Assembly: GCA_008632985.1 (NCBI GenBank)
Contig: QPGO01000036.1
Span: 334,182-398,181, forward strand
DNA length: 64,000 bases
Direction: 5' to 3'
Source of the DNA: Psammoneis japonica
Lineage: Eukaryota
The notes under the pieces were generated by a model. The model did no database searches. It was not told the origin of the DNA and saw nothing but the letters and a program-made list of their open reading frames with translations. Of this stretch, positions 355 to 46,925 are shown piece by piece. Each line of letters begins with the position of its first letter. Within the stretch, counting starts at the first letter, position 1. The position numbers and the translations under genes are program-made.

Positions 355-2345
355 CGACATGCGCCACACCCACAGCCACTGATGCTGCAACTTGCAGCTT
401 GACACAAAGAGCTTGTGGTGATTTCCAGATTCCTTTCCACGAAGCTGACGATCAAACATTTCTAGATTGGTGAGACCGCCAAAGCTTGCTGTTTCATTGA
501 TCGCTGTCTGGCCACAACAGCAACAGGCATCCACAACGAAGAGACTAAAGGCAACCCGTCCCATGGCAACTGCGTCGCGGCGATGCAATTCATAAAACTC
601 ACTGTGGAACTCTCTTTGAAGTCGATCAAATCACGGGCAATGGGACAAATTGAGTGTGAGACAGTGAATTGCGCAACAATGTGGTTGACAAACACGTTCT
701 CCGTTTCCTGTTCTTGCCGCAGTGCTTTCAATGCAACAGTTTCGTTGATTGCACCCACGACGACTTGCCACACATCTCTGAACCAACCCATTTCTCATGC
801 AGCTGACAGAATCTTCAAAGTCTGCATTTGTTCCTGAGTTGCGACCGGTGGCTTGCAACTCCAATTCATGCAACGCATTGCAATTAGGAAATGACAACGT
901 TGCCATTGTGAAGGGCAGACACATTTTTTGTCTTGACGATGGTCCGCAGTGAAGACATCTTGGTGCATTGCAACCTCACCTGCGGTGGTGCGTGCAGTGT
1001 CAAGTCGTCCTCGAGCAGACGTGGATGAAATTCTCTGTCGAAGCCACACGGCGTTCGTCCAAGAATGCCAGACGAGGTGCAGCAGCTTCACCCTTCAGTT
1101 CCTTGTTCGTTGTTGCATCTGTGGATGCGTCGCGCAATGACGAGTCAACGGGAGACTCTTCTGGTGCAGTGGCGGTGTCGTTGCGAACGTCGTGTTCTTG
1201 ATGTTTGGAAATGTGAAGTGCAAAGGACAGCGCAGCAAACAAAATAGAAACAAACGCCAGCACTCCAAAAACAGGTCGCATTTCTCCGGCGTTTAAAAGA
1301 ATGATGGACGAGATTTACGACGGGTTCCAGTCCCAGGTGGGACTTTTTGTGACATTGGGCCCGCAGAATTCTACGTGCGAGCTCCGCAGTAAAATTGTCA
1401 AGCAATGGATGTGTGAATGATCGCCAACAGAAAAAGAGGCAATTTTGCGAATGCATCTCCTCCTCCACACTTGAAGTGCATTCTTTGCAGCATGCCCGGG
1501 TGTGTTCTTTAGACATTGAAGAATGCACCCAGTGCATTTTTATTGACACAAGTGCAGACAACAGAAAGCCTTTGGCTTCGCAAAACAGGCAGTGTGGAAC
1601 AATTTTTTACAATGGAACACGTAGAAATGCACGTGCGAAACATGCGACGGATGACAAAAAATGATTGTGTCACAGTTCAGCAGTGTGAGGTCCCACCCAG
1701 AGCTGGAACATGTCTTGCGCATGGGTGATGGAGTCAAGGAAAGTGCTTGCCTTGCAGTGTCAAAGGCATCACTTTGTGATCGCCGATGCCGAACATGAAA
1801 TCTGCCACATCTGCCCGGGGGGAGCTTGTCTGTGCACTCACTGTTGGGAGAAACAACTGAGAGACACTGTGGCGTTGAAAAACGAGGAATCTCCAACGAT
1901 GCAGGACACCTTTCTGCAACACTAGAAAGTGGTCCGGAACTTCTGCTCTAGTCTCTTCTTCTGTTTTCGGCCTTTCTGTCATGGACAGGAGGCGGACAGC
2001 GAAGTCACACCTTGCTTTCTCGATCTTGGATGGAACATTGTGAATGACGCATGAGGCAGAAAGAGACTCTCTTGAAAATGCGAGGTGTCGCGGCACAAGT
2101 GCTCCCCAGTCTTGTTTGCGCTGAGTTGCACTTCGTGGCAATGCATCGGCATGTTTGAAAGCAAGTCCATCCTGTGAATTCCTCAAAGCTCTTCCTCCCA
2201 TTTTCCCAAACATTTTGCAAACTCGGATGACGATGCCGGCACTGCAGTCTCTCTCCAACGAGGATGATTCAGTCGCAAGACGATTTTCCCTCCATCATTG
2301 GTGAAAACCACCGTTGGCAGCGGCATCGAATTTCTGAAACGCTCA
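355..2345 (-). pseudogene. Degenerate copy of the membrane protein-kinase locus (homologous to ~31045-32680), including intron and upstream region; interrupted by a MITE
   Basis: Colinear with 31045-32680 (e.g. AINETASFGGLTNLEMFDRQLRGKES; SFPNCNALHELELQATGRN). It has frameshifts, the splice donor GTAAG is changed to GCAAG, and TA->TG/CA changes run throughout. Confidence 0.93.
1319..1714. mobile_element. MITE-like insertion (~396 bp) with ~25-bp imperfect TIRs and a 4-bp TSD (TTAC / TTGC)
   Basis: Left end GACGGGTTCCAGTCCCAGGTGGGAC vs reverse complement of right end GACATGTTCCAGCTCTGGGTGGGAC. The empty site GAGATTTACGCATGGG is present in the sister copy at ~6511, and a matching empty site is in the intact gene at ~31996. 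Confidence 0.85.
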
Positions 2346-3550
2346 CGAGTCAAGCTCCATTCGCCCGGACCGTCATGGGCGCTGCCCTTGAAGGAGGCGT
2401 TGTTGAGTGCCACTGCACTCACAATTCAGCATCCAGTGATCACATGCGTCCTGCCAGCACATTCGGTTTGGTGGCAGCATCGCCCACCCGAGTCCAGTCA
2501 TCTGAAACAATGCGAAAACAGTCATGGCCCGAACGACACCTCAGAGAGGAGAAGCCAAACCTTCTGAACAATGTTTCCGACTTGCTCATGTCGGCATTAA
2601 ATGGCTTCCACCTCTTCGTCAGAGGTCTCTGACCCCACTCTGGTTCCCGATTCTGTGTCGTCAGAATCCTTTTCATCAACGACGCAATTCAGATGACCTG
2701 TGCCATCGTCCTTCCATTTCCGGATCTTCATCATAGTTCGCATTGCCGTGACCAGAGCTCTCCACCAACCTGCCAGCATGCCAGCAAGAGAATGAGTGGA
2801 CTTTTCTTCTTCCGAGTCCATTCCGACTTCTTCATCGAACTAAAAAAAGAAAGAAAGCAGACGAGTCAGAAAAGCTTGACACGAGAAAACCTCAAACGAA
2901 CCTGGCCTCCACATCTTGTTTTCAAAACATTTGCTGCAAAGTGACGCATGAGACGTGACGCACTTCTTCAAAGGTTGCAGCAATGCGATGCACGAGATGT
3001 GATGCAAGGATGCAAGACACAAGGGCGCAAACAAGAATGGAAGACCAAAGAGCAACACTCGCCGCTTGCAACCAAGTCTGGGGCCCTGCAAGGAAGCAAC
3101 AACGACCGCTTTTGTAAGAATTGTGTTGGTTCTCGCAGCGCACTGCTCGTGTGCACTTCCAACTCTACAGTGTAGAGAGCGTGCAGCTGTCCTCAGCACA
3201 GCACCATTTAGGAACACGTTCTGGTTTCCATTGTCATGATGTCGAGTGAATCTCACAATTGCGCTGGCATGATCGTGTGGGTCTGAGTTTCCACCAATGA
3301 CACACACCCCATCAATGTCCTTGAGCTTTTCTCGAAATGCCTTTTCCGGTTTGAAATCGGAATTTCACCAAGCCTCGAACTTGGGACCGGCATTCATGGA
3401 CGTAATCACCTTTTGACAGAACATGCAGAGAATGACAGGCATTTGCCCACGCAGTGAAAAGACTGAAACAAACTGCGTCGACTGGAGGCTCACATTTGAA
3501 ATGTGGCCACAAAAGTGCTCACCTTGAAATCTAAGCAGCCACCACACACA
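1715..3550. repeat. Segmental duplicate, copy 1 (pairs with ~6515-8340)
   Basis: Near-identical colinear sequence for ~1.8 kb; differences are mostly transitions at TA/TG/CA/CG dinucleotides. Confidence 0.95.
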
Positions 3551-3554
3551 ATGA

Positions 3555-4090
3555 GTGTCAGACACACAGCAGTGGATTCCTTGTCATCTGCATCAACTTC
3601 ATTGACTCTGGTTCCCCATTCTGTGCCGTCAGAATCCTCTTCATTGGTGACGTCATCCAGACAAACCGCCCATCCTTCCATTTCCGGATCTTCTTCATCA
3701 CAGCTCGCATTGCCGTGACCAGAGCTCTCCACCAACCTGGAGCATGCAAATGTGAGAATGAGCGAACTTTCTTCTTCCAAATGCACTCCGACTTGTTCAC
3801 TGACTAAAAACAAAGCAAGAACACAGCAGACGATTCAGAAAAGCTTGACACGAGAAAATCTGAAACGACCCCACAGTGCCCTCCACGTCTCGTTCAAAAC
3901 CTTTGCTGTGAAGCGACGCATGAGATGTGGCACACTTCTCCAAATGTTGCAGCAACGCGACGCACGAGATGTGAGACAAGGATGCAAGACAGAAGGGGCA
4001 AACAAGAAGGGAAGACCAAAGAGTGACACTCACCGCTTGCAACCAAGCCTGCAAGGAAGCAACAACGAACGCTTTTGTAAGAATTGTGAT
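3555..4090. repeat. Diverged third copy of the ~2620-3125 segment
   Basis: Shared blocks such as CCTTCCATTTCCGGATCTTC, GACCAGAGCTCTCCACCAACC, CAGAAAAGCTTGACACGAGAAAA and GCAAGGAAGCAACAACG. Confidence 0.85.
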
Positions 4091-4255
4091 GATCATCGCA
4101 GCAGCATCGCCAACGAAACAAACGCATGAGTGACTTGAGTGAGTTGTTGAGTTGTTGGTTGTTGATGCTGTTTCGGCACGCTTTTGTGGCTGTGCCAGAC
4201 AGCCCGTGGCATTCCACCACTGCAATCTTGCCGAAATCGAACGAAAGTTCAAAAA

Positions 4256-4552
4256 GTGGTCGACCTTTTTTTGAATTTTTTCACAAGAGGTCGACCCTTT
4301 TTCAAAAAAAAAGAATCGAACCTCCAAAATTACAAAGAACCTCCAAAATCACAAGAAGAGGTTGACCCTTTTTAGATTGCCGGCAGTGGTCGACCTTTTT
4401 TTGAATTTTTTCATAAGAGGTCGACCCTTTTTCAAAAAAAAGAATCGAACCTCCAAAATTACAAAGAACCTCCAAAATCACAAGAAGAGGTTGACCCTTT
4501 TTAGATTTTTTCACAAAATGCTGCATGTCGTCGACCCTTTTTGAAAAAAAAT
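4256..4552. repeat. Tandem duplication of a ~131-bp unit built from GTCGACC(C)TTTT and GAACCTCCAAAAT motifs
   Basis: 4256-4378 is near-identical to 4387-4508, with a further partial motif at ~4530. Confidence 0.9.
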
Positions 4553-5802
4553 TTAACGCGTGCACGTGCTGCACAGGCCACTCTAGCTAGAGCAGCTGGT
4601 GGAGAGAGTGCCGGCACACGCAGTGACGCACCATGCTGTAGAGTGGGACTGGATGGATCCAGGATGATTGATTCTTCATTCGATCGCGGGTCGCGGTCGC
4701 TTGTGTTCTTGATTTACGAGCACATTCATCATTCATCGACGGTGCTTTTGAGCATTCCGTCGAGACTCAAGCTGTCGAGGCATCAAGAAGAAGCGACAAA
4801 ACAAAGGAAAGAATCGTGGTGTTCAGGACATTTAAGAACTCTGCAAGGTGGTGGAACCTGCGGCACATCGGAGCCATTTTGAGAGAGATGATGAAATCGA
4901 AAATGCAGGAGCAGTTTTGCAGATTCCACGAGCAGAGGCAGCCGCTTGTCGAATTGCCAAGCAAGAGCTGGACCCACATTTTTGATTCACATTCCAGCAG
5001 CTCTTTTGTTTTCTCATGATTTGCAAGAATGGCTGAACAAAACGAGTGGCAGCGCAACGAAGAAACAACATGCACGTCCTTTTCCGAACGCGCAGCCTTG
5101 AGCCTTTGTGGAGTGCGTCGGTCCCAAGAGCACGCCATTTCGCAACAAACTGAATCCATGCACTGCTTGGATGGATGGAATGGCAAAATTTCGAAATGAG
5201 TTTTGGTGTTTAGAGCCATGGGGGAGAGTGCCTGAAGACCAGTGTCTGTCCGTGCATGTGTTGGAAGCCGTGGTTCTTCCCATGCATGTTGACATGACAC
5301 ACTCCAAGGGCAAAACGGTAGACTGGAGCCATTTGGGATTAGCCAGAAGCAAAAGTTGCAATCTCATGCGGCTGATTTGCTTTTTCGACATGCCAAACTT
5401 GCACATGCCGGCACAAGAATCATTGAGCGGGGCAACTCGGAGAGAGAAGGACTGCACAGCACTTGGATCAACCTCCCAAAACAATGCATTGTCACTCTAG
5501 ACGACGAGACTCGACACGACGAAAACATGACTCGTCCCGGTCTTCCTGACATCCTGGTGCATGTAGACTTGGAACCCCAGAACTTGATTTTTCTCGTAAA
5601 GTTGGTGCAGCATCAAGTCACGCCGTTTCTATGCTGGATTGGGAGGAAGCTGCTTGTGCAGATCCACAATTTGAATTGTTGATGCTGTGTCGCAGGGTTT
5701 GCGCCAGTGATGATCAAGCCACTCATCTTTTGGGATTTTTGCTCTAGGAACCAAATTGTCCCGCTGGAATGTTGGAGAACAAGGCATTCATTGCTGGCAT
5801 CC

Positions 5803-7152
5803 CTGAACCGTGTCCGGCTAAAGCTCAAAGCGATTCACAGCTTGTGCACGTCACTGATGCAGGGTGTGGATCTGTTGGGGTGGGGTGGCAGGAGAAACCC
5901 ATGGCAAACCAAGCCAGACTTGCTGGTCAAGATTCAAAGTGAATGGAAACGATTGTACAATGTGGGTTGGGGGTTTTACAGAGCTGCCAGAGATTGAAGT
6001 GTTGCCAGTCATTGTGCGATGTTGCCATTTCTGGATGCTTCATCGTCAAATCCATGAGCGCTTCCAGCAAAACTGAGGCAATGTCCTCGGCAGAAGTGCG
6101 TTTGTGTGGATCCAAGACAAACCAAGTACGATCGGATCGTCTGAATTGATGTGCATTTTGTGGAGTGCAGGTGGTTGTCCATTCGCCACTTCGAAACGGA
6201 CCACATCAATTTGCCTCTTCTTGTTCATTTTCTCACGGGGTGAATGGGATGTCAATGCAGGTGTTGCGTCAGCACCACATGCTTGATGAACATGCGCCAT
6301 GCCCACACAAACTGACGCTGCAACTTGCAGCTTGACAAAAAGAGCTTGATGTGATTCCTTTCCACGAAGCTGACGATCAAACATTTCTAGATTGGTGAGA
6401 CCACCAAAGCTTGCTGTTTCATTGATCACTGACTTGGAAACAAACACCAGTGCTCCAAAAACAGGTTGCATTTCTCCGGCGTTCAAAAGAAAAATGACCC
6501 ACTGATGGACGAGATTTACGCATGGGTGATGGAGTCAAGGACAGTGCTCGCCTTGTAGTGTCCAAGGCATCACTTTGTGATCGCCGATGCCGAACGTGAA
6601 ATCTGCCACATCTGCCCGGGGGGAGCTTGTCCGTGTGCTCAGTGCCCGAGAGAAACGACTGAGAGACACCATGGCGTTGAAAAACGCGGAATCTCCAACG
6701 ATGCAGGATGCCTTTCTGCAACACTGGAAAGCAGTCCGGAACTTCTGCTCTAGTCTCTTCTTCTGTTTTCGGCCTTTCTGTCATGGACAGGAGGCGGACA
6801 GCGAAGTCACACCTTGCTTTCTCGATCTTGGATGGAACATTGTGAATGACGCATGAGGCAGAAAGAGACTCTCTTGAAAATGCGAGGTGTCGCGGCACAA
6901 GTGCTCCCCAGTCTTGTTTGCGCTGAGTTGCACTTCATGGCGATGCATCGGCATGTTTGAAAGCAAGTCCATCCTGTGAATTCCTCAAAGCTCTTCCTCC
7001 CATTTTCCCAAACATTTTGCAAACTCGGACAACAATGCCGGTGCTGCAGTCTCTCTCCAACGAGGATGATTCAGTCGCAAGACGATTTTCCCTCCATCAT
7101 TGGTGAAAACCACCGTTGGCAGCGGCATCAAATTTCTGAAATGCTCACTAGT
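5803..7152 (-). pseudogene. Second degenerate, internally deleted copy of the kinase locus (homologous to ~30290-32670)
   Basis: Starts CTGAACCGTGTCCGGCTAAAGCTC as at 30290 and encodes remnants such as VRFEVANGQPPALHKMHINSDDPIV (parent ...KMYINSDDPIV). Several internal deletions join distant parts of the parent. Confidence 0.92.
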
Positions 7153-8340
7153 CAAGCTCCATTCGCCCGGACCGTCATGGGCGCTGCCCTTGAAGGAGGC
7201 ATTGTTGAATGCCGTTGCACTCACAATTCAGCATCCAGTGATCACGTGCGTCCTGCCAGCACAGCAGTGTCGCCCACCCGAGTCTGGTCATCTGAAACGA
7301 TGCAAAAACAGTCATGGCCCAAACGACACCTCAGAGAGGAGAAGCCAATCCTTCCAAACAACATTTCTGACTTGCTCATGTCGGCATCAAACAGCTTCCA
7401 CCTCTTCGTCAGAGGTCTCCAACCCTGCTCTGGTTCCCGATTCTGTGTCGTCAGAATCCTGTTCATCGACGACGCAATTCAGATGACCCGTGCCATCGTC
7501 CTTCCATTTCCGGATCTTCATCACAGTTCGCATTGCCGTGACCAGAGCTCTCCACCAACCCACTGGTGTGCCAGCAAGAGAATGAGCGAACTTTTCTTCT
7601 TCCGAATCCATTCCGACTTCTTCATCGAACTAAAGAAAGAAAGAAAGCAGACAAGTCAGAAAAGCTTGACACGAGAAAACCTCAAACGAACCTGGCCTCC
7701 ACGTCTCGTTTTCAAAACATTTGCTGCAAAGTGATGCACGAGACGTGATGCACTTCTTCAAAGGTTGCAGCAACGTGACGCACGAGATGTGATGCAAGGA
7801 TGCAAGACACAAGGGCGCAAACAAGAATGGAAGACCAAAGAGTGACACTCACCACTTGCAACCAAGTCTGGGGCCCTGCTGCAAGGAAGCAACAACGACC
7901 GCTTTTGCAAGAATTGTGTTGGTTCTCGCAGCGTGCTGCTCGTGTGCACTTCCAACTCTGCAGCGCAGAGAGTGCACAGCTGTCCTCAGTGCAGCACCAT
8001 TTGGGAACACGTTCTGGTTTCCATTGTCATGATGTCGAGTGAATCTCACAATTGCACTGGCATGATCGTGCAGGTCTGAGTTTCCACCAATGACACACAT
8101 CCCATCAATGTCCTTGAGCTTTTCTTGAAATGCCTTTTCCGGTTTGAAATTGGAATTTAACCAAGCCTCGAACTTGGGACCGGCATTCATGGACGCAATC
8201 ACCTTTCAACAGAACATGCAGAGAATGATGGGCATTTGCCTGCGCAGTGAAAAGACTGAAACAAACTGCGTTGACTGGAGGCGCACATTTGAAATGTGGC
8301 CACAAAAGTGCTCACCTTGAAATCTAAGCAGCCACCACAC
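6515..8340. repeat. Segmental duplicate, copy 2 (pairs with 1715-3550)
   Basis: Direct colinear match; lacks the MITE. Confidence 0.95.
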
Positions 8341-8522
8341 ACAACGCGATCCATCTTGAGGAACCCGCCAGTGCTCTTGATGTCATCCAGCACACTGTCC
8401 AACACTTGCTGAGCTTCGACTGGTGATTCCTTGTTGTTGTCTGCAGACCATTTACAATGCCATTCGCGTGCAACTGTGTCAAAATCGACACCAGGTGCAA
8501 TTGTGGCGAATTGTCTTTGCAT
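8075..8522 (-). pseudogene. Pseudogene of a small conserved algal protein of unknown function (FDTVAREW.CKWS.DN ... RVVCGGCLDFKV ... F.PEK.F.EKLK); partial second copy at ~3270-3550
   Basis: Motifs recognisable in ORFs 8199-8522 and 7849-8202, separated by a probable decayed intron; TA-depleted. Family recognised from memory, not searched. Confidence 0.7.
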
Positions 8523-9548
8523 GTGAGATTTGTGAAACTGAAAGACTCGAAACAGATGGGGAGAAACAAGTCAAACATGAAGAGTTTCGAGACGCCACCG
8601 TTGTTGACATCGATGATGAATGACGACTTGGAAGTTGAACGTAGCGAGCGAGACAAGCTTCTCAAGACGAGGGCGACTGCTCTGAAATGTGCTTCCATCT
8701 TTCCCAGAAAGAACGAGCCTTGGGTTGTGCCAAGCCACCCATGAGAGAGAGAGACCTTTCCTTCCATTTCAATTGTCTGAGAATGTCCCCATGATTGTTT
8801 GCTCAACGCAAGACAGATGGAATTACATGCTGTGCTTCTGGTCAAAGCAAGGGGTGCGTGACGAAACAAATCTCAACTCACTCTGCGCCTCGAGTCATGC
8901 CGCGACTGCGGACATTTCGGGCAAGGGATGAAGACAACGTTTGAACGCAGAAAGAAGCATCTTGAGCCGATGACGAGAGCGCCGCAGCCAAGCAAGGCAA
9001 GAAAATAATGACGCGAGTATCCGGAGCTACGAGCTGTGCCGCACTTGACGCAACCAAGGGACAAGCTAGGGCTGTCGTCATTTAGCACGAGGCAACCCCA
9101 AACCTGAAGCCTAAAAAGCCGCATCCATCGCATCCGGACTTGAAAAAAAGATACAAGATACCATGATCCGAAAGAATAGAAAGCTTCGTGTACTAAGAAA
9201 AATAATAGTTGCATCAAAGACGATACTGTAGTGAGCATAATCATTCTTCTCCTTTCTTCATAGTGACGTATTGGCTTGTCTACTATCTTGAAGACTCTAT
9301 GAAAAATTTGGATTCAAGTTGGATATACAAAAAAATTCGTATACATATAAATAATAATAACGTTCAACGCATCTCCCGCCAAAAACGGGCGGAAATGATG
9401 ATAACATTTTGGTTTCTTCGTCTTCAGTCAGAATCCAGCCATGAGCTCCCTTCAACCTGCGTTGTGTCGCCGTCTTTCTTGAAATTGTTGAATAACAAGG
9501 CGACTATTGAGTCGTCATCGGCTCAATAGAGAGCGATAAGAGTAGACA

Positions 9549-12157: not shown

Positions 12158-12506
12158 TATGACATTTTAGAATGACTGTGGACATTTCAAGACGTAAACT
12201 CTTAGAATTTCTACAGGCTGAGAGTCAGACATCAGAAAGTTTCATGCAAGTGTCGAACCTCCACCGTGAACCTTAGTACAAATCTACGAGAGAGACATTC
12301 GAAGAGTGTCTATTTTCTTACGTGGTCCAGAAGGCATTGAGATCACTTCTCACGCAGATCACTTTTAGATTAGTTCAGCTCATAATTTCAACTAAGCACG
12401 AGTTAGTAAGACAACTCATTGCTGTTTTACTGGCTTTTAGTACCTTGTGCTGATTGTCAGCACTGCATTCTACAGACAGGACTTGTTTCCCAGGCAGAAT
12501 CCCACA
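12158..12506 (+). repeat. 5' LTR
   Basis: TATGACATTTTAGAATGACTGTGG...AGAATCCCACA; aligns with 26327-26688. Confidence 0.93.
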
Positions 12507-12521
12507 GGCGCTTCCTCTGCG
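12507..12521 (+). promoter_or_regulatory. Putative primer-binding site GGCGCTTCCTCTGCG
   Basis: Directly abuts the 5' LTR; its complement CGCAGAGGAAGCGCC resembles the D-arm of eukaryotic initiator tRNA-Met. Confidence 0.5.
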
Positions 12522-12579
12522 ACCTGCTTCGCAACTTCAGTTTCAAGTCAGCCATTGATCGAAACCAAGCCCTCTGACG

Positions 12580-14100
12580 ATGGTCAACACATGCACTTCC
12601 ATTGCATCATTGACATCTCCTGGGACTTCAGGAGCTCCAAAGACTGCTGGCATGACTGCTGGCTCTCCTGATGCTCCAGCTCCTGTCGGAGCTGCTGCTG
12701 CTCCAGCTCAAGCAGCCGCGCCGGCTCCACCGGTCCCACCAGCTCCTCCCGCAGGTGGTGGCGGAGGCAGTGGTGGAGGAGGTCCTGCAGGTGGTGGTGG
12801 CGGCACTCCACCAGTGCCTCCCATGCCTCCTGCTGCACCTGCTGCAGGACCAATCTTCGCACTGACCCCCCAGGCCAACACCGTCCTGATGATTGGATCG
12901 ACCAAGGTCTCAAATTGTGGCACGCGGCTGCTGCACCACTGCCCCACAAGTTCAACAGAGACTCTGAAGGTCTCAACAAGTTCTGTGAAGTTCTCAACAA
13001 ACAAGCAGCAGAGTCAGGATGGAAGTCGGGAATGGGAAACATCACTTTAATCCCAGACAGCAACGGCGCCAATCGTGACCCAATCACTGAGCATGGAAGA
13101 CTCTTGCCATTCAGAACATCTGGGATCATGCAACCGGATGCATGGGTGTCCAGTCCAGGCAAGCTCAGAACCAAGTCCAAATGGCTGAAGCGATCTCTCA
13201 TGTGCTCACTGCAGAAGCCAGAGACAAGATCATCGCCAAAAGCAAGCAATGCAAGATCAATGGCGCACAAGTTGGCACCCTGTTTTTCAAGCTGCTTGCC
13301 AGCTGCTTACCCAGAAGACCATTGTGGACACTTGTTTGACTGCAAACTGCTTCAAAAAGAACCTCTCTAGTCTGGACTCATGCATTCCAACCTGCAACTC
13401 CAACATCGAAGAGTTCAACAAGTGTGTCAAGCTCAACTGGGACAGTCTCAGAGCCAGGGGAGAAGGTTGCGATGACCTTGTTGTGAACTTGCTCAAGGGA
13501 TGCATTGCTGCTGGTGACCAAGCCCATGTCAAGTGCATGGCTGACATCAAGCAAAAGTGTGATGATGGTGAGGATTGCACCCCGGAGTGAGTCATGAAAC
13601 TGGCACTGGACAAGTGCACTAACCTGGATCGAGCGGCAAGTGGGGAGCTCTGTCACCCAAAGAAGAGAAGATCATCACTCTCTCCTCTGAGGTTGAGACC
13701 ATCAAGGATCCCAATCTCAAGCTCTCCAAGGCTCTCAAGAGTGGTCCCAACAAGTCCAAGGGAGGTGGTGGCAAGCAGAACTCCAAGAACAAGAGCAAGA
13801 ATCCAAAGCGTGCCAAGAAACAGGACGAAGCCTGGAAAAAGACTCCGCCAAAGGACGGTGACCCCACAAAGACTGTCAATGGACACAAGTGTCATCACAA
13901 GAGTCAAAAAGGACGTGACTGCTGTTGGTGCAAGCACCACTCCACTTGGGCAGCTCACTCACCAGACGATCCAGGAGAGACAAAGGCTGTGGACTGCACA
14001 AAGCTCAAGAATCCGAGAGTGGGTCATCCAACCCCAACAAGAAGGTGTCCCACGCCAATGCTCTGGCATCTGTCATTGAAGACCTCGAGTCCAAGGAATG
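12580..14100 (+). pseudogene. Copia gag remnant
   Basis: Pro/Gly/Ala-rich N-terminus, then DDLVVNLLKGCIAAGDQ...KQKCDDGED (CoDi-type gag with Y->C changes); frameshifted. Confidence 0.75.
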
Positions 14101-14449
14101 ACCAGTCTGGGAAGCTTTCCAGACACGGGCTTTCTGCATGAAGGTGGTCCTCATGACGCTCACAATTGCCCCAGTCATCACGAGCTTCATGGATGCTGTG
14201 GCTCCACTGCTGTCGATCACAATGTTCAATTCACTCAACCTGCAGGAGAAGAAGTGGAAACACACATCTAAGTCAACAATGATGTTGGGCGAGTGGATCA
14301 TTTTGCAAATCCCAGCTGATGGTGTGACTGGCAGACACAAACCATGATGGAACAAGAGTCAGCACTCACCGAGATGTGTCACTCCCAAGAAGAAGGGCCA
14401 TCCTTCTTGAGCAGCCTGCAAGAAGGCTCAACGCAAGATCACCTTTCAC

Positions 14450-19993: not shown

Positions 19994-20004
19994 TTGCAAC
20001 GCTC

Positions 20005-20520: not shown

Positions 20521-20599
20521 TGTTTTGCACAGAAGTCTGTGCAGAAATGTTTTTTGCACATGCAGAAACATGCTGGAATCTGCAAGAGCACCAGAGCAC

Positions 20600-26688: not shown

Positions 26689-26699
26689 CCAAATTGTTG

Positions 26700-32963: not shown

Positions 32964-34685
32964 CGTGATTGGTGCAACACGTCACCAAGTTGAAGTTCAT
33001 TTTGTTGGAGGGAAAACAAAAAGCACGAGAATCATCACGTGCCCGGTCGCTCGACGATGATGCTCACAGCTTCTTGAAAATCCATGGCTTTTAGCACTAC
33101 CGACCTATGCCCACCTTGCCAACCCACCTGTGAAGCTCCCTGAGGGCCGAAGTGCAAAAACCCATCATGTCTGATGTCCGAAAATCGCTTGCATCAAAAC
33201 ACATGCATCGGCTGTTCTTGGATTCTCGCGTTCAGAATCAATGGATGCCAGTGGACCTGTGGGCAGAGTGCTGCAATACAAAAGTCAACATCAATGATGA
33301 GAGAGTCAAAAATGGGGGCAGACAATTGAAGAAGCCGTGTGGCAGCATCAGCGGGGTGTTTCGAGTTTGACGGAAGAGAACAACATTGTTGCTGACGGGG
33401 TGAATTTGTACGAAACGGAATGCCAACATGGCAGTCAAGCCCAACCCCTTTCCCGACTTTACAAATTGCTTGAAGCAACTCAAGGACAAAAACAAAGCCC
33501 GTGCATCCCGGTTCTGCACCGACCTGCAAGACGTTTTAAGGACTGCAAACTCCCGAACCTCTGTTTGGACACGAGAATTTCAATCACTTTGTCGGATCCA
33601 AGTCTTTGGCAAAAAACATTGACATTTGTCATGATCTTGCAAACCGAAGTCGATCTTTGCCACTGAGCATCAGCAAGGGCATCGTGGGAGCACTTTCAAT
33701 GGGTGCAATTTAGGACAAGACGATTTTGAGGACATTGCAGCTTTCTGTCAATCAATTGACATCATGCTTTTGAACCGCCAATGACGATGGCTCGTTGTCA
33801 CACTGCCGGAGGCTTGTCTGCACTGCCGTCTGCTTGCTTTAAGAACGAATTGGCCACTTGCGCCTTCTCCACCAACAGATGTGTGTTTGGTTTGAGCAGC
33901 AGGTGGATGGGAACGGGTGCAAGTTTCGTCTCTGAATGCACACCCCAAACAACACTGCCAAACCAATCAAAGGAGTGCAAGCACTGCCATCACAGCTCTA
34001 GAACAGTTTGTTTACATTCAAGAACGAACAGGTCTAGGCCCCACCCGCCCACGTGGTGTCGGTAGAAGAGAGCAAAGCCAAGGGTGGCATCAAGCGACGA
34101 CGGCATCAGAGGCACCAGCAACTGGCAACAATCATTTCACAATTCAAAATGTGGCAGTGCTTCATTGCACACTCTTCCTGTGGAGACACTTGCCTCTTGT
34201 GTAGACATCTCGAAAGGAACTGCGCCACTTCAGCATCACGCACATCGCATGGGAGCACGCGTGGTCTTGACTCCAAAATGTCATTCTGAACTGGCATGGG
34301 AATGCACAGAATGTCTTTGGGCTTGTGCAAAAGGTGAGCATCGAAACCTTTTCCTGTCACAGAAAATGGGAAAAGAGAATTTCAAGAAATCTGTCAGGCA
34401 CTGCTTGTTGGATGAGGTGTTGTCAAGCGCACACGCAAGTTTGCAAAGAGAGCACCACGGCACACTCAGGCTTGCCATGCAACTGATGATGGATGTGTTG
34501 AGGACACAAAGAGGGTCCATGAATTTGGACCCACTCCCAACTGGAAGGTCTGTATTATTTGGACCCGTTGCACTCGACAAGACGCACCGGTGTACTGTTG
34601 CTTTTGCTTTCAAGTTTGCATCAACAGCGTCGCCGAAGGCGATGTTGTGATGCTTCGAAGCGTTGCATGAATTTTCGAAATCACG
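32964..34685 (+). mobile_element. Internally deleted DNA transposon remnant (Tc1/mariner-like DDE transposase C-terminus)
   Basis: TPKCHSELAWECTECLWACAKGEHR matches the diatom transposase motif TPKCHxELAGEGIEYSWxxAKxxYR (from memory). Ends TA|CGTGATT ... AATCACG|TA. Interior TA-depleted. Confidence 0.7.
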
Positions 34686-34934: not shown

Positions 34935-36802
34935 TTACTTTCTCGTGAACTTGGTTCTAGCTGGATCATTCTTTCGAATATCCATGAGTGCCTCGAGCAA
35001 TATGTCTGCAACTTGTGTAGCTGACGCTCTCTTTTTCGGGTCAACTTTATGGCATAACTTCATTGCCTTGACCATTGCAACAATGGCAGGATCCTTGGAT
35101 TTCGTGTAGTAGTCAGTCAATACAGGCGGTTTACCTACAGCCACCTCCCTCCGAATAAATTCCATTCGCTCTTTTTTCATTTTGCCTCGGGGAGAATGAG
35201 TCGTCAAAATATGATACAATATGCTTCCCAAGCTGTAGACATCTACCTTTTCATCCACAAGACGAGTATCAGGTTTCGGTAGCTTGATGACTTCTTCGGG
35301 TGCACGCCACCACGGCTCATGCAAACGAGAAGGGAAACCGCACGTTTCATTTGTCTTGGGATTGATGCGTAGAAACTCGGCAGTGTTAAAGTCATTCAAT
35401 TTGGGTTTACCGCCCTTCACAATAGCAATGTTGCGTGGATTCAAATCGTAATGCACCATGGCGGGTCGAGCGTCGGCGCCATTGACTTGGTGGACATGCG
35501 CCACTCCGACTGCAACAGATGTTGCAATTTGCAGCTTGATAAAGTAGGCTTGCTTAGATTCTTTGCCACGCAATTCCCGGTCAAACTTTTCCAAACTGGT
35601 GAGGCCACCATGGCCAAAGGATGCCATTTCGTTGATTGCGGATTGGCCGCAAAAACCATAAATGTCCATGACAAATGGACTAAAGGTGAGTCGCTCCATG
35701 GCAACCGCATCGCGACGATGCAATTCATAATATTCGCTGTAAAACTCTCGCTCGGACCTAAATGGACAATGCGACAAGAGAAGAAGAGATATCAGTTGCG
35801 CGTGGGCACCATAAAATACAAGTATACAGCGAATGATCCTTACCGCAGTGTCTTGAGAACGACCGTTTCATTAAGAGCATCGAGATCGACTTGCCATGCC
35901 GCTCGAAACCACCCTCGACCCATGTACATGATGTTGTCTTCAAAGCCAACATTAGCACTGTGCTTGTTGCCAACGTCTTGTCCCGCGGCTCGCAGCTCCA
36001 ACTCGTGCAGCATGTTGCAATTGGGAAAGGACGACGTTTGCCATTCGGATTGAGGAACACAATCCGTGTCTCTGTGCTTCTTTTCATGATAATCGTCCTG
36101 CTCGACAGCCTCGAGTCCCGGTGGGGCAGCGGGTTCCGCATCCAAGGTACGAGTGTACACGGCGTTCTGCTTGAAACCGTGGTTGGCGTCGTCCCAATAG
36201 ACGGTACGAGGCTTGCTATCCTTGTAGTAGTGTCTATTGGCGTCAACGGGCTGGATTGGTGCTTCAGCAGGCAGGGAGACACGATTTCTGTGCCCGTCTT
36301 GGACTAGCGGTACTTGATTGAGCAAGTAAAAGGAAAACGATAAGGTCACAACAATAGACACCCCAAGCAGTAACAGGACAAGCAGGGGCAGTCTTCTTCG
36401 ACGAAAGGGTCCTCCTTTGGGCGATGACGAAGGTGACTTGGTTGGTGATATCATCTTGATAGTAGGAGAAGGCGTCCCAATGCTATTTGCTTGCTGAGGA
36501 CTTAATTGCTTATCGGGCGATCGTCGGTGTCGACAGTAAAGCCCATCACCGCTTGCAACAGAATTATTGGACGGTGACGAGTACTGATGGTGATGCGTCG
36601 GTGAGGTCGATGGTGATACTACTGCTGCGTGAAGCGGGAGATGATGTGATGGAGTTGAGATTACAAGGTGCTGAGCAGATTTGCAATGACTGCTGCCGCC
36701 GTTCATCACTTGCTGTTGCTGTACTGCAGACGACTCGGGGGGCACTTCAGTGGCAGTAGTGGGCGGTGTAGTCTTCTTTGCTTTCGTCTTGACGATTGAC
36801 AT
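34935..36802 (-). CDS. Type II membrane protein kinase, paralog 2 (exons 36802-35844 and 35757-34935)
   Basis: Same motifs and same intron position as paralog 1 (KTLR/SEREFY); TM segment follows RRRR. Confidence 0.93.
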
Positions 36803-37412
36803 TACGGTCTTTTAGATAATTCCAGACAACAGAGACAACTCAGTTCACAAATAAAGGAGCGTTCACTGCCATCTGAATTATGCGCTTGCTTGATATACTC
36901 TGCACCGTCTCTAACAGGGATTCCGAAGGAGGGGAGCAACTCAAACGGGTGAGACTCACTCTCCTTTTCAAACTTATGTGACTTGTGTATGTGTTTAGAT
37001 CAACTCCAGTTGGTTCCCGCGAGTACGAGACGCCGATTTTTGTGTCATGCTGCGATGCTCTCCTTCAACGCGTGTTTTTCTTTTCACGCGAGGAGTAAAA
37101 AATCAAATTAAATGTCGTTAAAAATTGCGAACACCGAATCCATTTTTATTATGACTTTATAAAGTGTATTAGCACTATTCTGTGATAGTCTACAATACTC
37201 AACGGCACTGCGCACCCGGTCGCACAGCAGACGGACGGCGATGAGAAGCCCGCCCGTCCGCCCGCCCCGCCAGCTTGGGGACTTGGGGAACGAAAAAAAG
37301 CGAAGCCATGAGATTGCAACCGTCTCGGCATCAACTTGCATCCACGCTGCCGACGATACAGTACAGTACACAAGCCAAGCCATCCAATAGAAGCATACTT
37401 TAAGCAGCCATC

Positions 37413-40349: not shown

Positions 40350-42509
40350 GCACTGGCACTATTCTGGGCGTCTGAGTTTTCCGTGATGGATCCAATTTTA
40401 CCCGAGAACCTGCTACTTATGTAAAGGTAGGGCCTACAATAATTGATGCGACAATGGCGTGGGTGACGTTCAACAGCAAGAAGCTCCTCTAACCAGCGAA
40501 ATTAACTCACCATTCGATTTTCTAGTGCTTTGGTCGGAGAATCTTTTAAAGCTAGAATTGTCTTAGAAGGTGAATCTTCCGCGCTTCGTAGGTTTCATAT
40601 TCTCCTCGTCACGGGACGTTCAGCACCCTGTAAGCTGCCGTTGCACGCCTTCTCATGAGCTCACCCGGTCCCACCAACGTTCTCTAGGAGACAATTTCAA
40701 TACAGAGTGGCAAACAAACTAGGCAGGGGAAAGAAATTATTCATGAATTGCTCCCACATTTTGCTGCGCAACCCTACGTTGTAGGGTCTAACAGCAATGC
40801 TTATACATGAAAGCGTCTACTAAGACGGTGAGTCCTCGCCAAAGATCGTCCCGCGACTTCTTCCCTGCAAAGGGCTCGAGCATGTCCCAGGCCAATTCTT
40901 TTGATTTTTCCGTTCACACAAAAAAAAAAAAAACGGATCTGTAAACATTGTAGACAGGATCAAGCATAGTTTAGGAATATGCATCAAGTTTGTAAAATAG
41001 AATACAACAGAGTTAATGCGTAGTACTCACAAACAAAAACATCGCGCATGGCTTATTGGGCGGTGCGTCTTGAGATATACTGTACAAGTAGCGTGGAGGT
41101 GCGTCTTAATTCCTTGAACGCACTGGCAGCTCGTCACCGCAAATTATGGACGAGACAACGACCCAAAAGCTAATAAGCCACGAGTCGTCTGTCGTCTCTG
41201 GCCTCCTTTGCAGATCAGAAGGCAATTGCAAGGAAAACTTAAGACACCGCCTTGATGGGAAGGATAGAGACGGGGAGAATTGAAATTGTTAGTTAATAAA
41301 TCCTCATACCGTTCTTTGGTAAACAGCCTTAAGGAGTTACCTGCACGACATTCCAACCTCGTCGCATTCCAATCGCATCCTGAGTGTCGAATCGTGGTAT
41401 GTCAATGCAAAATCCTTGTTTAATCTTAAAATTGACCGATTACCCTCAAAGCACATCACAAGTTGTTTCTATACCGGTATGATAGAAAAGCCACTCCGAG
41501 TAGCGCTCCATTCTTAGTAAAGAAAAATGGTCGTAGACCGAGAATCTCAAAACCACACCCAAGTGTATTATTCAGTATCGCCGCTGACGAATGATCCGAA
41601 CGCTTCCAAACCTCCTTGTACTGGAAACCCGCCCAAAAGGAGTGTACCCTCTGAACTGAGACCGAATGAACCGGTAGAGTCCCCGGAAATCTATTACGAG
41701 CAACATGGCAGGAAATTCCATCTTTGGTGAGAACCATTGCACCAGCAAAAAATCAAAAAACGTAAAAAGCACAAGACTTAGTATCTTTACCGACACCACA
41801 GCGTCATACACTGCAACCAATGAGGATTCTGTATTCTGCCATTTCCCACGTGTTACTCTCGACTTTATTAGACTGCCATCAAGGATCGCAACCTCGTCAT
41901 GTGCGGATTCTGTCGAGTTGACTGGTTCATGGTGTATGGTATGCTGAAAAGTTGGACAGCAAAATCAAAATACACCACAGGGAGAGCTGAGAGCTCTCGT
42001 TGCGCCGCTATCTGGTCCCACCATCCAGGGTGTGTTTTAGGGCCCTAGTGTGCAAAAAGTCATAGTCATTTTTGAACAGACTTTTTAGGCTGACTTTGTC
42101 TGTTCACAGCTGAGGATGACCACAAGTCAACTAAAAGTCAAAGTCAGTCATGTCTCATGGTGTTTCGTCAGCAAACTGACTGACATGCATCACTTTTCAG
42201 TGCCATCTGAAACTTGTTTCTGCTCTTCACTAGAGCGAATCTGAGCAATTTGCTGCACCCCAAAACTTCCACACATGCTGTCTGGCAATTGTGCTGGCCT
42301 TTGCCCACCAGGGTTGTTGCCTCAAGGTCAAACTCAAAACAACCTTGCCAGCCCGGCTCTTTCTTTGTTGAAGATCTGGCACATTTGCAGATGGTGGCAC
42401 CCTCATTTTCTTTGTTTTGTTTTCAAAATCTTGTTCACAATTGACTCACTTGTTTCAAAGCTGGCTCACTTGGCAGCTCTCTCAGCCACAGCTTGCAAAG
42501 AATTGTCCG

Positions 42510-45500
42510 GGGTTTCACCACGGTGGCTTTGCAGCTCCCAACCATTTTGCTCAAAGCGCTGCCTGGGACCAACAGAAGACATTCAATGATGTTTGACAGC
42601 TGATCTTGTCAGGGTGGTGGGTGCGCCAATGGTGCTGCTTCACTTCAAAAATTTGAGCTCAAGTCTCACCCTGACAATTGTGCGAAGTGAGACGCAGCCA
42701 GAGTTGCGCAATGGTTGCTTTGCAGCTCCCAACCATGGCTCTTAAAGTGTCACCTGGGGTCCACAAAAGCCATTCATTGGTGTTTGACAACAGTCGTTGG
42801 GTGGGTTGGTGCACTCATGGTGTTGTTTCACTTCAGAAATTGGGCTCAAGTCTCACGCTGACAATTGTGGGAAGTGAGGTGGAGCAACAGGTGCACCATG
42901 GTGGCTTTGCGGTGGCCTTGCGACTCCCAACCATGGCCATCAAAGTTTCCCCTTGGGTCCCCCAAAGACATTCAGCGGCATTTGACAACAGTTGTTGGGT
43001 GGCCAGGTGCACTCACAGCATTGTTTCACTTCAGAAAAATTGGGGTTCAAGTCTCATGGTGTGAAGTGACACAGAGCCAGAGTTGCACCACGCACCACGG
43101 TGGCTTTGATGCCCCTGACCATGGCTCTTAAAGTGTCACCTGGAGTCCACTGAAGACCTTCGGTGGTGTTTGACAACAGCTGTTTGGTTGGTGGGTGCAC
43201 ACTTGGTGCTGTTTCACTTTTGAATTTTGCAATCAAATCTCACCCTGGCAGTGGTGTGAAGTGACACGGGCTGCAGCACAGCCATGGTGGCTTTTCAACT
43301 CCTGACCATGGCTCTCAAAGCATCACCTGGGGTCCACTGAAGACATTCAAAGGTGTTTGACAACAGTTGTTGGGTGGGTGGGTGCACACATGGTGCTGCA
43401 GTTTCACTTCAGAAGTTGGGAGAATCCAGTCTCACCCTGGAAGTCATGTGAAGTGACATGGGATGCAGCTGAGCCAATGTGGCTTTGAAACTCCCCACCA
43501 TGGCTCTCAAAGCATCACCTGGGGTCCAGGGAAGACGTTCAATGGTGTTTGACAACAGTTGTTTGGTGGGCAGGCACGTTCATGATGTTGTCTCACATCA
43601 GAAGTTGGGGTTCAAGTCTCGCCCTGACATGTGAAGTGATGCAGAGCCAGAGTTGTGCCATGGTGGCTTTGCAGCTCCCCGCCGTTGCTTTTGAAGTGTT
43701 GCCCAGGGCCCACTGAAGACATTCAAATGGTGTTCAACAACAGCTGTTGGGTGGGTGACTGCACAAATGGTGCTGTTTCATTTTGTTGGGAGTCAAGTCT
43801 CTCACCCTGACATTTTGTGAAGTGATGTGGGCTGGAGCTGAGCCAGGGTGGCTTTGCAAATCCTGGCCATGGCTGTTGAAGTGTCGCGTGGGGTCCAGGG
43901 AACACATCCAATGGTGCTTGACAACAGCTGTTTTGTGGGTTGGTGTGTTCATGATGTTGTTTCACTTTAGAAGTTGGGGCTCAAGTCTCACCCTGACATT
44001 TTGTCAAGTGACATGGGCCAGAGCTGAGCCAGGGTGGCTTTGCAACTCCAGGTCATGGCTGTCAAGTGTTCCCTGAGGTTGGCTGAAGGAGACATTCAAT
44101 GGTGTTTGACAACAGTTGTTTGGTGGGTTGGTGCGTTCATGATGTTGTTTCGCTTTTGAATTTGGGGTTCAAGTCCCTCACCCTGACATTTTGTGAAGTG
44201 ACATGGGCCACAGCTGAGCCAGGGTGGCTTTGCAACTCCCTGCCATGGCTGTCAAAGTGTCCCCTGGGGTCCGCTGAACACATTCAATGGTGTTTGACAA
44301 CAGTTGTTTGGCGGTTGGTGGGTGGGTGCATGCGCGGTGCTGTCTTGCTTCAGAAGTTGGCAATCAAGTCTCACCCTGACATTTTGTTGAGTGACATGGG
44401 CCAGAGCTGAGCCAGGGTGGCTTTGCAACTCCTGGCCATGGCTGTTGAAGTGTCACCTGGGGTCTGCAGAAGACATTCAGTGGTGTTTGACATCAGTTGT
44501 TTGGTGGGCGGGTGCACTCATGGTGCTGTTTCACTTCAGAAGTTGGCAACCAAGTCTCACCCTGACATTTTGTCAAGTGACGTGGGCCAAAGCTGAGCCA
44601 GGGTGGCTTTGCAACTCCAGGTCATGGCTGTCACCTGGGGTCCACTGAAGACATTCAATGGTGTTTGACAACAGTGTTTGGTGGGTTGGTGCTTTCATGA
44701 TGTTGTTCCTTTTTTGAATTGGGGGTTCAAGTCTCTCACCCTGACATTTTGTGAAGTGACATGGGCCACAGCTGAGCCAGGGTGGCTTTGCAACTCCAGG
44801 TCATGGCTGTCACCTGGGGTCCACTGAAGACATTCAATGGCATTTGACAACAGTGTTTGGTGGGTTGGTGCTTTCATGATGTTGTTCGTTTTTTGAATTT
44901 GGGGTTCAAGTCTCTCACCCTGACATTTTGTGAAGTGACATGGGCCACAGCTGAGCCAGGGTGGCTTTGCAACTCCCTGTCATGGCTCTTGAAGGGTCTC
45001 CTGGGGTCCATGGAAGACATTCAATGGTGTTTGACAACAGTTGTTTGGTGTGTGGGTGCACACATGGTGCAGTTTCACTTCAGAAGTTGGCAATCAAGTC
45101 TCACCCTGACATTTTGTCACGTGACATGGGCCAGAGCTGAGCCAGGGTGGCTTTGCAACTCCAGGTCATGGCTGTCAAAGTGTTGCCTGGAGTCCACTGA
45201 AGACATTCAATGGTGTTTGACAACAGTTGTTGGGTGGGTGGGTGCACACATGGTGCAGTTTCACTTCAGAAGTTGACGATCCAGCCTCACCCAGGCAGTC
45301 ATGTGAAGTGACATGGGATGCAGCTGAGCCAATGTGGCTTTGAAGCTCCCCACCATGGCTCTCAAAGCGTCACCTGGGGTCCACTGAAGACATTCAAAGG
45401 TGTTTAACAACAGTTGTTGGGTGGGTGGGTGCACACATGGCGCAGTTTCACTTCAGAAGTTGGGAAGCCAGCCTCACCCCTGGCAGTCATGTGAAGTGAC

Positions 45501-46925
45501 ATTGGATGCAGCTGAGCCAATGTGGCTTTGAATCTCCCCACCATGGCTCTTAAAGCGTCCCCTGGGGTCCACTGAAGACATTCAATGGTGTTTGACAACA
45601 GTTGTTGGGTGGGTGGGTGCACACGTGGTGCAGCTTCACTTCAGAAGTTGGGAATCCAGCCCCTCACCCTGGCAGTCATGTGAAGTGACATGGGATGCAG
45701 CTGAGCCAACGTGGCTTTGAAACTCCCCACCATGGCTCTTAAAGCGTCACCTGGGGTCCACTGAAGACATTCAATGGTGTTTGACAACAGTTGTTGGGTG
45801 GGTGGGTGCACACGTGGTGCAGCTTCACTTCAGAAGTTGGGAATCCAGCCCCTCACCCTGGCAGTCATGTGAAGTGACATGGGATGCAGCTGAGCCAACG
45901 TGGCTTTGAAACTCCCCACCATGGCTCTTAAAGTGTCACCTGGGGTCCACTGAAGACATTCAACAGTGTTTGACAACAGTTGTTGGGTGGGTGGGTGCAC
46001 ACATGGTGCAGCTTCACTTCAGAAGTTGGGAATCCAGCCCCTCACCCTGGCAGTCATGTGAAGTGACATGGGATGCAGCTGAGCCAACGTGGCTTTGAAA
46101 CTCCCCACCATGGCTCTTAAAGTGTCACCTGGGGTCCACTGAAGACATTCAACAGTGTTTGACAACAGTTGTTGGGTGGGTGGGTGCACACATGGTGCAG
46201 CTTCACTTCAGAAGTTGGGAATCCAGCCCTCACCCTGGCAGTCATGTGAAGTGACATGGGATGCAGCTGAGCCAACGTGGCTTTGAAACTCCCCACCATG
46301 GCTCTTAAAGCATCACCTGGGGTCCACTGAAGACATTCAAAGGTGTTCAACAACAGTTGTTGGGTGGGTGGGTGCACACATGGCGCAGTTTCACTTCAGA
46401 AGTTGGGAATCCAGCCTCACCCAGGCAGTCATGTGAAGTGACATGGGATGCAGCTGAGCCAATGTGGCTTTGAAACTCCCCACCATGGCTCTTAAAGCAT
46501 CACCTGAGGTCCACTGAAGACATTCAATGGTGTTTGACAACAGTTGTTGGGTGGGTGGTGCACACATGGTGCAGTTTCACTTCAGAAGTTGGGAATCCAG
46601 CCTAACCCTGGCAGTTATGTGAAGTGACATGGGATGCAGCTGAGCCAATGTGGCTTTGAAACTCCCCATCATGGCTCTTAAAGCGTCACCTGGGGTCTGC
46701 AGAAGACATTTGATGGTGTTTGACAACAGTTGTTGGGTGGGTGGGTGCACACATGGTGCTGTTTCACTTCAGAAGTTGGCAATCAAGTCTCACCCTGACA
46801 TTTTGTCAAGTGACATTGGCCAGAGCTGAGCCAGGGTGGCTTTGAAGCTCCTGACCATGGCTCTTAAAGTGTCACCTGGGGTCCACTGAAGACCTTCAGT
46901 GGTGTTTGACAACAGTTGTTTGATG
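42510..46925. repeat. Satellite array, ~189-bp unit, roughly 23 copies, two subfamilies
   Basis: CCATGGCTCT recurs at 45541, 45730 and 45919 (189-bp spacing); core CACCTGGGGTCCACTGAAGACATTCAATGGTGTTTGACAACAGTTG. Confidence 0.97.

Follow-up and report, generated by a model that had tools for sequence, protein, structure and literature searches.

In a 64-kb stretch of Psammoneis japonica DNA (contig QPGO01000036.1, positions 334,182 to 398,181; hereafter the window), long blocks have lost nearly all of their TpA dinucleotides, while other blocks have kept theirs. The question raised by this locus is why particular TpA steps persisted in the depleted blocks, and what their flanking bases reveal about the activity that erased the rest. 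As a whole, the window has a G+C content of 48% and a eukaryotic look, with observed/expected ratios (O/E) of 0.29 for TA, 1.47 for CA, 1.51 for TG and 0.62 for CG, and along its length the number of TAs per kb switches between 0–12 and 36–69. A two-state hidden Markov model of TA versus TG/CA sites was used to segment it into eight depleted blocks (40,452 bp, 223 TA, TA O/E 0.04–0.12) and seven normal blocks (23,548 bp, about 1,040 TA, TA O/E 0.51–0.81). In the affected blocks TpA was reduced ∼10-fold, and CA and TG were increased. The rewriting is local, with repeat-rich depleted blocks alternating with normally composed gene blocks. A comparable layout is described for Bigelowiella natans, in which integrated giant-virus and virophage DNA undergoes TpA-restricted hypermutation (Mettrop et al., bioRxiv 10.64898/2026.01.13.699255).

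Flanking bases of the surviving TpA steps

A preliminary description of this DNA, made from its letters alone, had claimed that the residual TAs favor a YTAR context (Y, pyrimidine; R, purine) and had suggested counting the 16 NTAN tetramers in mutated and gene blocks. This count was strongly non-uniform and bore the claim out. YTAR accounted for 131 of the 223 TAs in the depleted blocks, the mixed contexts YTAY and RTAR for 87, and RTAY for 5, as against 212, 540 and 285, respectively, of 1,037 in the normal blocks (chi-square 156, p = 1.3e-34). Seven of the eight example coordinates given at the time were exact, while a CTCTAG placed at 13366 lies at 13365. The accompanying remark that the RTA and TAY contexts had nearly vanished applies to RTAY (5/223), but it goes too far for the mixed contexts, which still number 42 RTAR and 45 YTAY. 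Compared with the gene blocks, retention per kb was 0.36 for YTAR, 0.094 for mixed sites and 0.010 for RTAY. Among individual tetramers, it ranged from 0.60 for TTAA, 0.35 for TTAG, 0.26 for CTAA and 0.22 for CTAG to 0.03 for GTAC, 0.008 for ATAC and zero for both ATAT and GTAT.

Uniform survival after normalization for composition had been named beforehand as the outcome that would speak against a context preference. Three normalizations were applied: to the gene blocks; to a first-order Markov expectation computed from the NT and AN frequencies within the depleted blocks; and, in identical flanks, to TA/(TA+TG+CA). The Markov model predicted 68.3 YTAR, 110.2 mixed and 44.5 RTAY sites (chi-square 97.6, p = 6e-22). 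Survival stayed non-uniform and the YTAR bias persisted under all three. It was present in every one of the eight depleted blocks, none of which contained more than two RTAY sites (0–2 per block). The survivor bias is, accordingly, a true context dependence of TA loss and not a matter of composition.

The window also contains material for a direct before-and-after comparison, as an intact protein-kinase gene region in a normal block has mutated pseudo-copies in a depleted one (Table 1). Over 3,795 gene-to-pseudo-copy columns, A:T>G:C changes per A amounted to 117/305 (0.384) for TA, compared with 54/682 (0.079) for AA, 49/548 (0.089) for CA and 26/529 for GA. In the same columns, CpG had become TpG or CpA in 68 of 400 cases, and the other reverse transitions ran at 0.05–0.07. 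The change is thus restricted to TpA: A:T turned into G:C only where the A follows a T. Once pseudo-copies present in duplicate, and positions with two aligned references, had been collapsed, the direct set comprised 124 observations at gene TAs, with TG in 49, CA in 48, TA in 13 and something else in 14, meaning that 97 of the 111 changed sites had become TG or CA.

Survival in this direct set was 8/24 for YTAR, 4/61 for mixed and 1/25 for RTAY sites, near the composition-based values, and YTAR differed from all other sites taken together (8/24 versus 5/86; Fisher p = 0.001). Since TAs shared by the gene and a pseudo-copy carry the same context bias, most of the residual TAs are genuine survivors; the attribution of the bias to the mutator, rather than to later creation of TAs, was thereby upheld. 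At four positions of the gene (31937, 32190, 32554 and 32566) the pseudo-copies differ in what became of a single TA, one having TG and another CA. Hits were thus stochastic, independent and possible on either strand, a finding that speaks against a base-calling artefact. The intact kinase copy was untouched while its pseudo-copies were rewritten, a pattern that suggests targeting by domain or by silencing and not a trigger of homology alone.

Strand choice and positions beyond the tetranucleotide

The base 3′ of the A (+1) and the base 5′ of the T (−2) are complements of each other on opposite strands, so that survival alone cannot separate a rule on one from a rule on the other. The product, however, resolves the strand, TG resulting from a changed A on the top strand and CA from a changed A on the bottom strand. 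At YTAY and RTAR sites of the direct pairs, the base 3′ of the changed A was a pyrimidine in 40 cases and a purine in 17 (p = 0.003). We therefore conclude that the base at +1 is the main determinant of editing. Per opportunity, events in the direct pairs numbered 42/64 with C at +1, 22/47 with T, 17/53 with G and 16/56 with A, and at ATAC/GTAT sites the TAC strand was changed in preference to the TAT strand by 11:2. Pairs of mutated copies pointed in the same direction (33 versus 17, including eleven changes of GTAA to GCAA and none to GTGA), although these counts are not independent. In the depleted blocks with normal CpG, the TG excess per expected ancestral TA was 0.99 with C at +1 and 0.31–0.35 with the other bases; the TG/CA excess over gene blocks was not used for the CpG-poor blocks, where it is confounded by CpG decay. 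A competing-risk model of survivors and directions preferred +1 (Akaike information criterion, AIC, −775) to −2 (AIC −723) and was best with both (AIC −787), an A at −2 then roughly doubling the rate seen with other bases.

Neighboring events in the direct pairs fell on the same strand in 60 of 101 cases, with 48.9 ± 4.9 expected (p = 0.016, uncorrected for context and shared ancestry). No such coordination appeared in the TG/CA series taken over the depleted blocks in bulk, and a strand coordination of neighboring events is only weakly indicated. Separately, two depleted blocks were seen to have opposite strand asymmetries: 12472–18785 has 801 CA versus 612 TG with an excess of A over T, and the satellite at 42088–47011 has 618 TG versus 517 CA with an excess of T over A. 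Either a strand-biased action or just the composition of the elements may lie behind these asymmetries.

The tetranucleotide preference that had been proposed for the mutator proved too narrow. In the depleted blocks, an A at +2 was present in 56% of the survivor strand views, versus 30% in the gene blocks. When sites were grouped by the number of protective letters they carry, inner (Y at −2, R at +1) and outer (T at −3, A at +2), retention per kb rose from 0.004 with none of the letters to 1.1 with all four, the motif T-Y-TA-R-A being found 34 times in depleted DNA and 18 times in gene blocks. Normalized to TG+CA in the same flanks, retention rose from 0.003 to 0.61, a roughly 200-fold range. 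The most frequent surviving hexamers were TCTAAA, CTTAAA, ATTAAA, TGTAAA, GTTAAA, TTTAAA and TCTAGA. The direct pairs showed the same two extremes, with survival of 3/4 T-Y-TA-R-A sites and of 0/20 RTAY sites lacking the outer T or A; edited sites per opportunity were 19/64 with A at +2 and 25–28 of 42–58 with each of the other bases.

Competing-risk models of survival improved in step with the positions included, the AIC decreasing from 646.8 for the null model to 473.9 with −2 only, 424.1 with +1 only, 341.1 with +1/+2, 309.5 with +1/+2/−2 and 304.9 with all four positions. The outer neighbor (a base other than A at +2, or other than T at −3) and an A at −2 thus add strongly to the effect of +1. 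Relative to A, the rates fitted in the four-position model were 4.3 for C, 1.75 for G and 3.55 for T at +1; 2.7, 1.7 and 2.35 at +2; 0.48, 0.47 and 0.40 at −2; and 0.88, 0.99 and 0.60 at −3. The context rule exceeds the tetranucleotide, and the per-strand rate is set by at least three flanking positions. Together these findings established the TpA restriction, the context dependence and the strand choice of the loss.

Candidate mechanism and rival explanations

Very probably, a mutator acting directly on the DNA of the depleted blocks turned TpA into TpG or CpA where it stood, at a flank-dependent rate on each strand. Such a mutator would be fastest where the A is followed by a pyrimidine and then by a base other than A, and where an A precedes the T (roughly A-T-A-Y-B, with B for any base but A), and slowest at T-A-R-A. 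A TA step would persist only where both strands are slow, and from this requirement would follow survivors of the YTAR type or, more exactly, of the near-palindromic type T-Y-TA-R-A (TCTAGA, TTTAAA, TCTAAA and the like). As to the chemistry, our leading but tentative candidate, held at rather less than even confidence, is hydrolytic deamination of DNA adenine to hypoxanthine, which pairs with C, by a deaminase that would read the 5′ T and the 3′ flank with a specificity unlike that of the characterized ADAR, TadA/adenine base editor (ABE) and ADAT2 enzymes. Adenine deamination is the simplest reading, and it is also the one proposed for the sole published case. As ∼95% of the TAs are gone, no rare secondary structure or hairpin loop seems to be needed. 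General Pfam scans revealed no deaminase domain among 66 open reading frames (ORFs) of the window.

Several points weigh against the reading of the data as a flank-dependent adenine mutator, or limit it. The composition-based ratios take the gene blocks as 'ancestral', and the make-up of the repeats may differ from theirs. Some of the surviving TACA and TGTA may be products of hits at an adjacent TATA, and about six TAs of the pseudo-copies face no TA in the gene copy, so that a minority of the 'survivors' may be new. The direct set is small (110 sites from one gene family and one block), and it overlaps the CpG-normal blocks used for the TG-excess test. The relative effects of C and T at +1 are inconsistent, direct events favoring C and survival placing T equal to or above C. 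From survival, moreover, the outer effect is not assignable to +2 over −3, since the model with +1/+2 (AIC 341.1) ties with that of +1/−3 (AIC 340.4). Finally, the counts carry no chemistry, and an activity on T that reads R-T-A would give the same pattern in duplex DNA.

This last point leads to the one rival that we regard as unlikely rather than remote, namely that the thymine of TpA is the target, for instance through an oxidation or modification that pairs with G and turns T into C. An A>G change at T-A-Y is a T>C change at R-T-A on the opposite strand, the survival, strand and model counts fit both equally, and no result of our analysis opposes an attack on T. The preliminary description's idea of an enzyme fingerprint is therefore borne out insofar as the context dependence is real and enzyme-like, but not as to the class of enzyme. 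T-modifying pathways are not known to produce near-saturating T>C at a single dinucleotide, and the one paper on this signature proposes adenine deamination. It is improbable, to a much greater degree, that the residual TAs are later C>T or G>A creations at CA and TG, or were kept by selection, in which case their context would be uninformative. With ∼8,500 CA and TG in the depleted blocks, a few percent of back-mutation would indeed yield the observed 5.5 TA per kb, and six TAs of the pseudo-copies stand where the gene copy has none. Yet flanks of the YTAR type surround 2,040 of the ∼8,513 TG and CA (24%) but 59% of the TAs; there are 463 ATGT and ACAT to 0 ATAT, and 670 TTGA and TCAA to 55 TTAA; and the 13 TAs common to gene and pseudo-copy show the same context bias. 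Even under a balance of creation and removal, the bias would still mirror context-dependent removal.

Two enzymatic alternatives are each more improbable again. One is error-prone repair synthesis by an enzyme like polymerase eta, which mutates A:T pairs by a 5′ W rule (W, A or T) and for which TA is a WA hotspot on both strands (PMC7884765). This comparison, suggested beforehand together with the SBS9 signature, is contradicted by the pseudo-copies, in which AA is no hotspot but changes at about the rate of CA and far below that of TA, and in which nearly all changes are transitions (only 14 of the 124 strict observations at TA are not TA, TG or CA). The other, equally improbable, is ADAR-like A-to-I editing of retroelement double-stranded RNA, fixed by reverse transcription. 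ADARs favor a 5′ U (PMC11334849), a preference matched by the 5′ T found here, and the B. natans preprint remarks on the same resemblance. The preferred ADAR triplet, however, is 5′-UAG-3′ with a 3′ G (PMC11334849), whereas here a 3′ G or A is slow and TAGA was edited in 3/20 cases. In addition, both strands are hit within one copy, and the affected sequences include host kinase pseudo-copies, the satellite and entire blocks that are contiguous and sharply bounded, which points to DNA changed in place. Least probable of all is an artefact in which modified TpA in repeats was systematically miscalled or misassembled. The single public run that carries the stretch may be the assembled sample itself; no RNA run is listed as carrying it. 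Its Logan contigs contain a fraction of 0.76 of the sampled words of 20000–28600 and show 0 differences over the depleted segments 14553–15938 and 25284–26219. Copies with like flanks differ in reading a given ancestral TA as TG or as CA, and the depleted copies also show indels and ordinary divergence. Contigs of runs X1 and X2, compared with 12472–32471 at 80% likeness in search of ancestral TAs in other repeat copies, yielded 2,847 differences, among them 549 A>G, 576 T>C, 484 G>A and 481 C>T, a context-free summary with no bearing on the fingerprint.

Returning to a TpA mutator acting on DNA, we compared it with known systems. One of these is the repeat-induced point mutation (RIP) of Neurospora and other ascomycetes (PMC7296669). 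RIP wrecks repeats by dinucleotide-specific transition hypermutation and spares adjoining genes, and in both respects the P. japonica blocks resemble it. Its chemistry is reversed, though: RIP converts CpA to TpA, and C>T at CpA would raise TpA in repeats, whereas here TpA goes to CpA or TpG, with TpA depleted and CA/TG enriched. The sparing of the duplicated functional kinase copy is likewise unlike a homology trigger that acts on all copies. TadA and its derivative ABEmax perform A-to-I conversion with a preference for UACG/UACGA (PMC8052359). The U/T-A-C core is shared, T-A-C being the most edited trinucleotide of the direct pairs, and to this extent the likeness to the UAC-G target of TadA that had been noted for this DNA holds up, given the excess of TAC over TAT. 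It does not extend further out. G at +2 was not favored (edited TACG 14/21, TACC 8/12, TACT 12/18; surviving TACG 18/108 versus TACC 8/127 and TACT 3/150), and T at +1 was about as good as C in the survival models. The resemblance to TadA is thus limited to +1, and membership of the TadA family would be no more than a candidate assignment. Amphioxus ADAT2, a natural ADAT-family enzyme reported to deaminate both A and C in DNA, prefers 5′GAA3′ for A and 5′TCG3′ for C (PMC10354150), whereas GA is the least changed A context here.

The closest counterpart is the hypermutation of B. natans. According to the preprint, its changes are almost exclusively A>G or T>C, always at TpA, and give TpG or CpA depending on the strand; they affect local foreign or repeat regions beside normal genes, and an adenine deaminase is proposed. 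The P. japonica case differs in its targets (relics of retroelements, a satellite and the pseudo-copies of a host gene), in its near-saturation and in the loss of CpG from most blocks. The words 'context', 'flanking', 'trinucleotide' and 'tetranucleotide' do not occur in the main text of the preprint, and the +1/+2/−2 fingerprint is not described there. Our literature search found neither a flank preference of a TpA>TpG/CpA mutator nor the phenomenon in diatoms described beyond that preprint. What is new here is the strand-resolved flanking fingerprint.

Layout of the window and meaning of the fingerprint

The coordinates of the blocks and of the features within them are listed in Table 1.

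Table 1. TA-depleted blocks and annotated features of the window (mixed, YTAY and RTAR)
Feature	Positions	Strand	Details
Depleted block 1 (TA)	1–9001		64 TA, O/E 0.11; CpG O/E 0.78; YTAR 30, mixed 32, RTAY 2; kinase pseudo-copies
Mutated pseudo-copy of 31046–32005	356–1319	+	82% identity
Mutated pseudo-copy of 32001–32682	1715–2351	+	Within duplicate pair 1715–3551 / 6516–8344 (93% identity)
Mutated pseudo-copies of 30239–30764, 31010–31197 and 31921–32674	5754–7149	+	
Depleted block 2 (TA, CpG)	12472–18785		18 TA, O/E 0.05; CpG O/E 0.31; YTAR 12, mixed 6, RTAY 0
Copia-type retroelement relic, gag_pre-integrase	15312–15869	+	In block 2
Depleted block 3 (TA, CpG)	19980–28661		YTAR 38, mixed 12, RTAY 0
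PALP-domain (pyridoxal-phosphate enzyme) ORF	20684–21187	+	E = 1.2e-11; in block 3
Mutated copy of unmutated 12160–12506	26329–26688		In block 3
Protein-kinase gene region, unmutated	30239–32682		ORFs 30485–31396 and 31397–32413 on minus; Pkinase E = 1.2e-17
Depleted block 4 (TA), short	33107–34551		11 TA, O/E 0.12
Depleted block 5 (TA, CpG)	42088–47011		186-bp satellite, ∼23 monomers; 16/17 TAs YTAR
Depleted block 6 (TA)	50255–53356		CpG partly retained (O/E 0.68); YTAR 13, mixed 10, RTAY 1
Depleted block 7 (TA, CpG)	55823–58195		6/7 TAs YTAR
Depleted block 8 (TA)	59390–64000		YTAR 11, mixed 21, RTAY 0

CpG was not lost in parallel with TA throughout. Five of the eight depleted blocks have lost most of it (O/E 0.17–0.46), while three keep it (0.58–0.78). 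Loss of TA only was seen at 1–9001, 33107–34551 and 50255–53356 (CpG O/E 0.58–0.78), and loss of both at 12472–28661, 42088–47011 and 55823–58195 (CpG O/E 0.17–0.31). The existence of these two classes of rewritten DNA implies that TA erasure and CpG decay are separable, and the split between them perhaps reflects age or methylation state. In the satellite, the single recurrent TA is a TTAA within CTCTTAAAG. Across the 23 monomers, this CTTAAAG column reads TTAA in ten, a TCAA-type sequence in seven and TTGA in four, and is deleted in two. Treating the monomers as independent trials was rejected, as they share higher-order ancestry and nearly all TA loss predates their amplification. The repeat family of block 8 also has copies at 16533–18610 and 22238–24461. 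In block 1, a 129-bp unit is present twice at 4255–4507 with 98% identity, and the two units differ at one TA site (ATAA versus ACAA, 4414/4284).

Pfam matches were obtained for 5 of the 66 scanned ORFs, most long ORFs of the depleted blocks remaining without a match, and the genes recognized in the normal blocks were two protein kinases and a MoaC domain. In a protein-atlas comparison made as a taxon check, the MoaC ORF scored 0.81 at best, a diatom-rich cluster ranking only third with 0.77. The normal block with the kinase region (28662–33106) has a TA O/E of 0.61 and a CpG O/E of 1.05. Its kinase ORFs (30485–32413) have a tandem paralogue at 34935–36811, likewise on the minus strand; the two are ∼73% identical in DNA over 887 bases, and both are TA-normal. 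The PALP-domain ORF is probably a rewritten gene fragment, because it lies within a block depleted of both TA and CpG. Contigs of run X2 match it at reduced likeness with small indels, and no parent copy was found within the window. In rewritten blocks (e.g. 12559–16601 and 24377–26254), both strands are filled with long frames that overlap one another, many of them 150–240 amino acids in length and without a Pfam match. These frames are open because TAA and TAG have been erased, and gene callers would wrongly take them for genes. Lastly, the 1.2-kb segment 18786–19979 is normal in both TA (79 TA, O/E 0.81) and CpG, although it is flanked by two rewritten repeat blocks. Its ends are C-rich and partly inverted, and three direct repeats of ∼166–171 bp lie inside it. 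The contigs of run X1 that match it reach a summed depth of ∼2,700, for which reason it is read as high-copy, and it is probably a young insertion that escaped the mutator.

A repeat-directed mutator that erases TpA has been reported in only one preprint, from 2026. We consider it conceivable, with more doubt than for the chemistry itself, that a putative DNA adenine deaminase of chromatin-silenced duplex, with a six-letter specificity (A-T-A-Y-B fast, T-A-R-A refractory), provides distant algal lineages with a common genome defence that runs counter to RIP, and that its fingerprint would be enough for recognizing it in vitro.

Evidence of this kind, flanking bases resolved by strand, allowed mutation signatures to be assigned to APOBEC and AID. 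The one described here excludes ADAR-like UAG, polymerase-eta WA and ADAT2 GAA preferences, and it offers a quantitative target for assays of candidate deaminases (T-A-C or T-A-T versus T-A-A-A). It can also be compared with the de novo events of B. natans, whose mutation-accumulation lines acquire them at very high rates and include 231 de novo TpA mutations (bioRxiv 10.64898/2026.01.13.699255); this comparison would bear on whether the two algae share one mechanism. Within P. japonica, the fingerprint accounts for which TAs remain in silenced DNA, and hence for which TAA and TAG stops and TATA-like signals are still present there.

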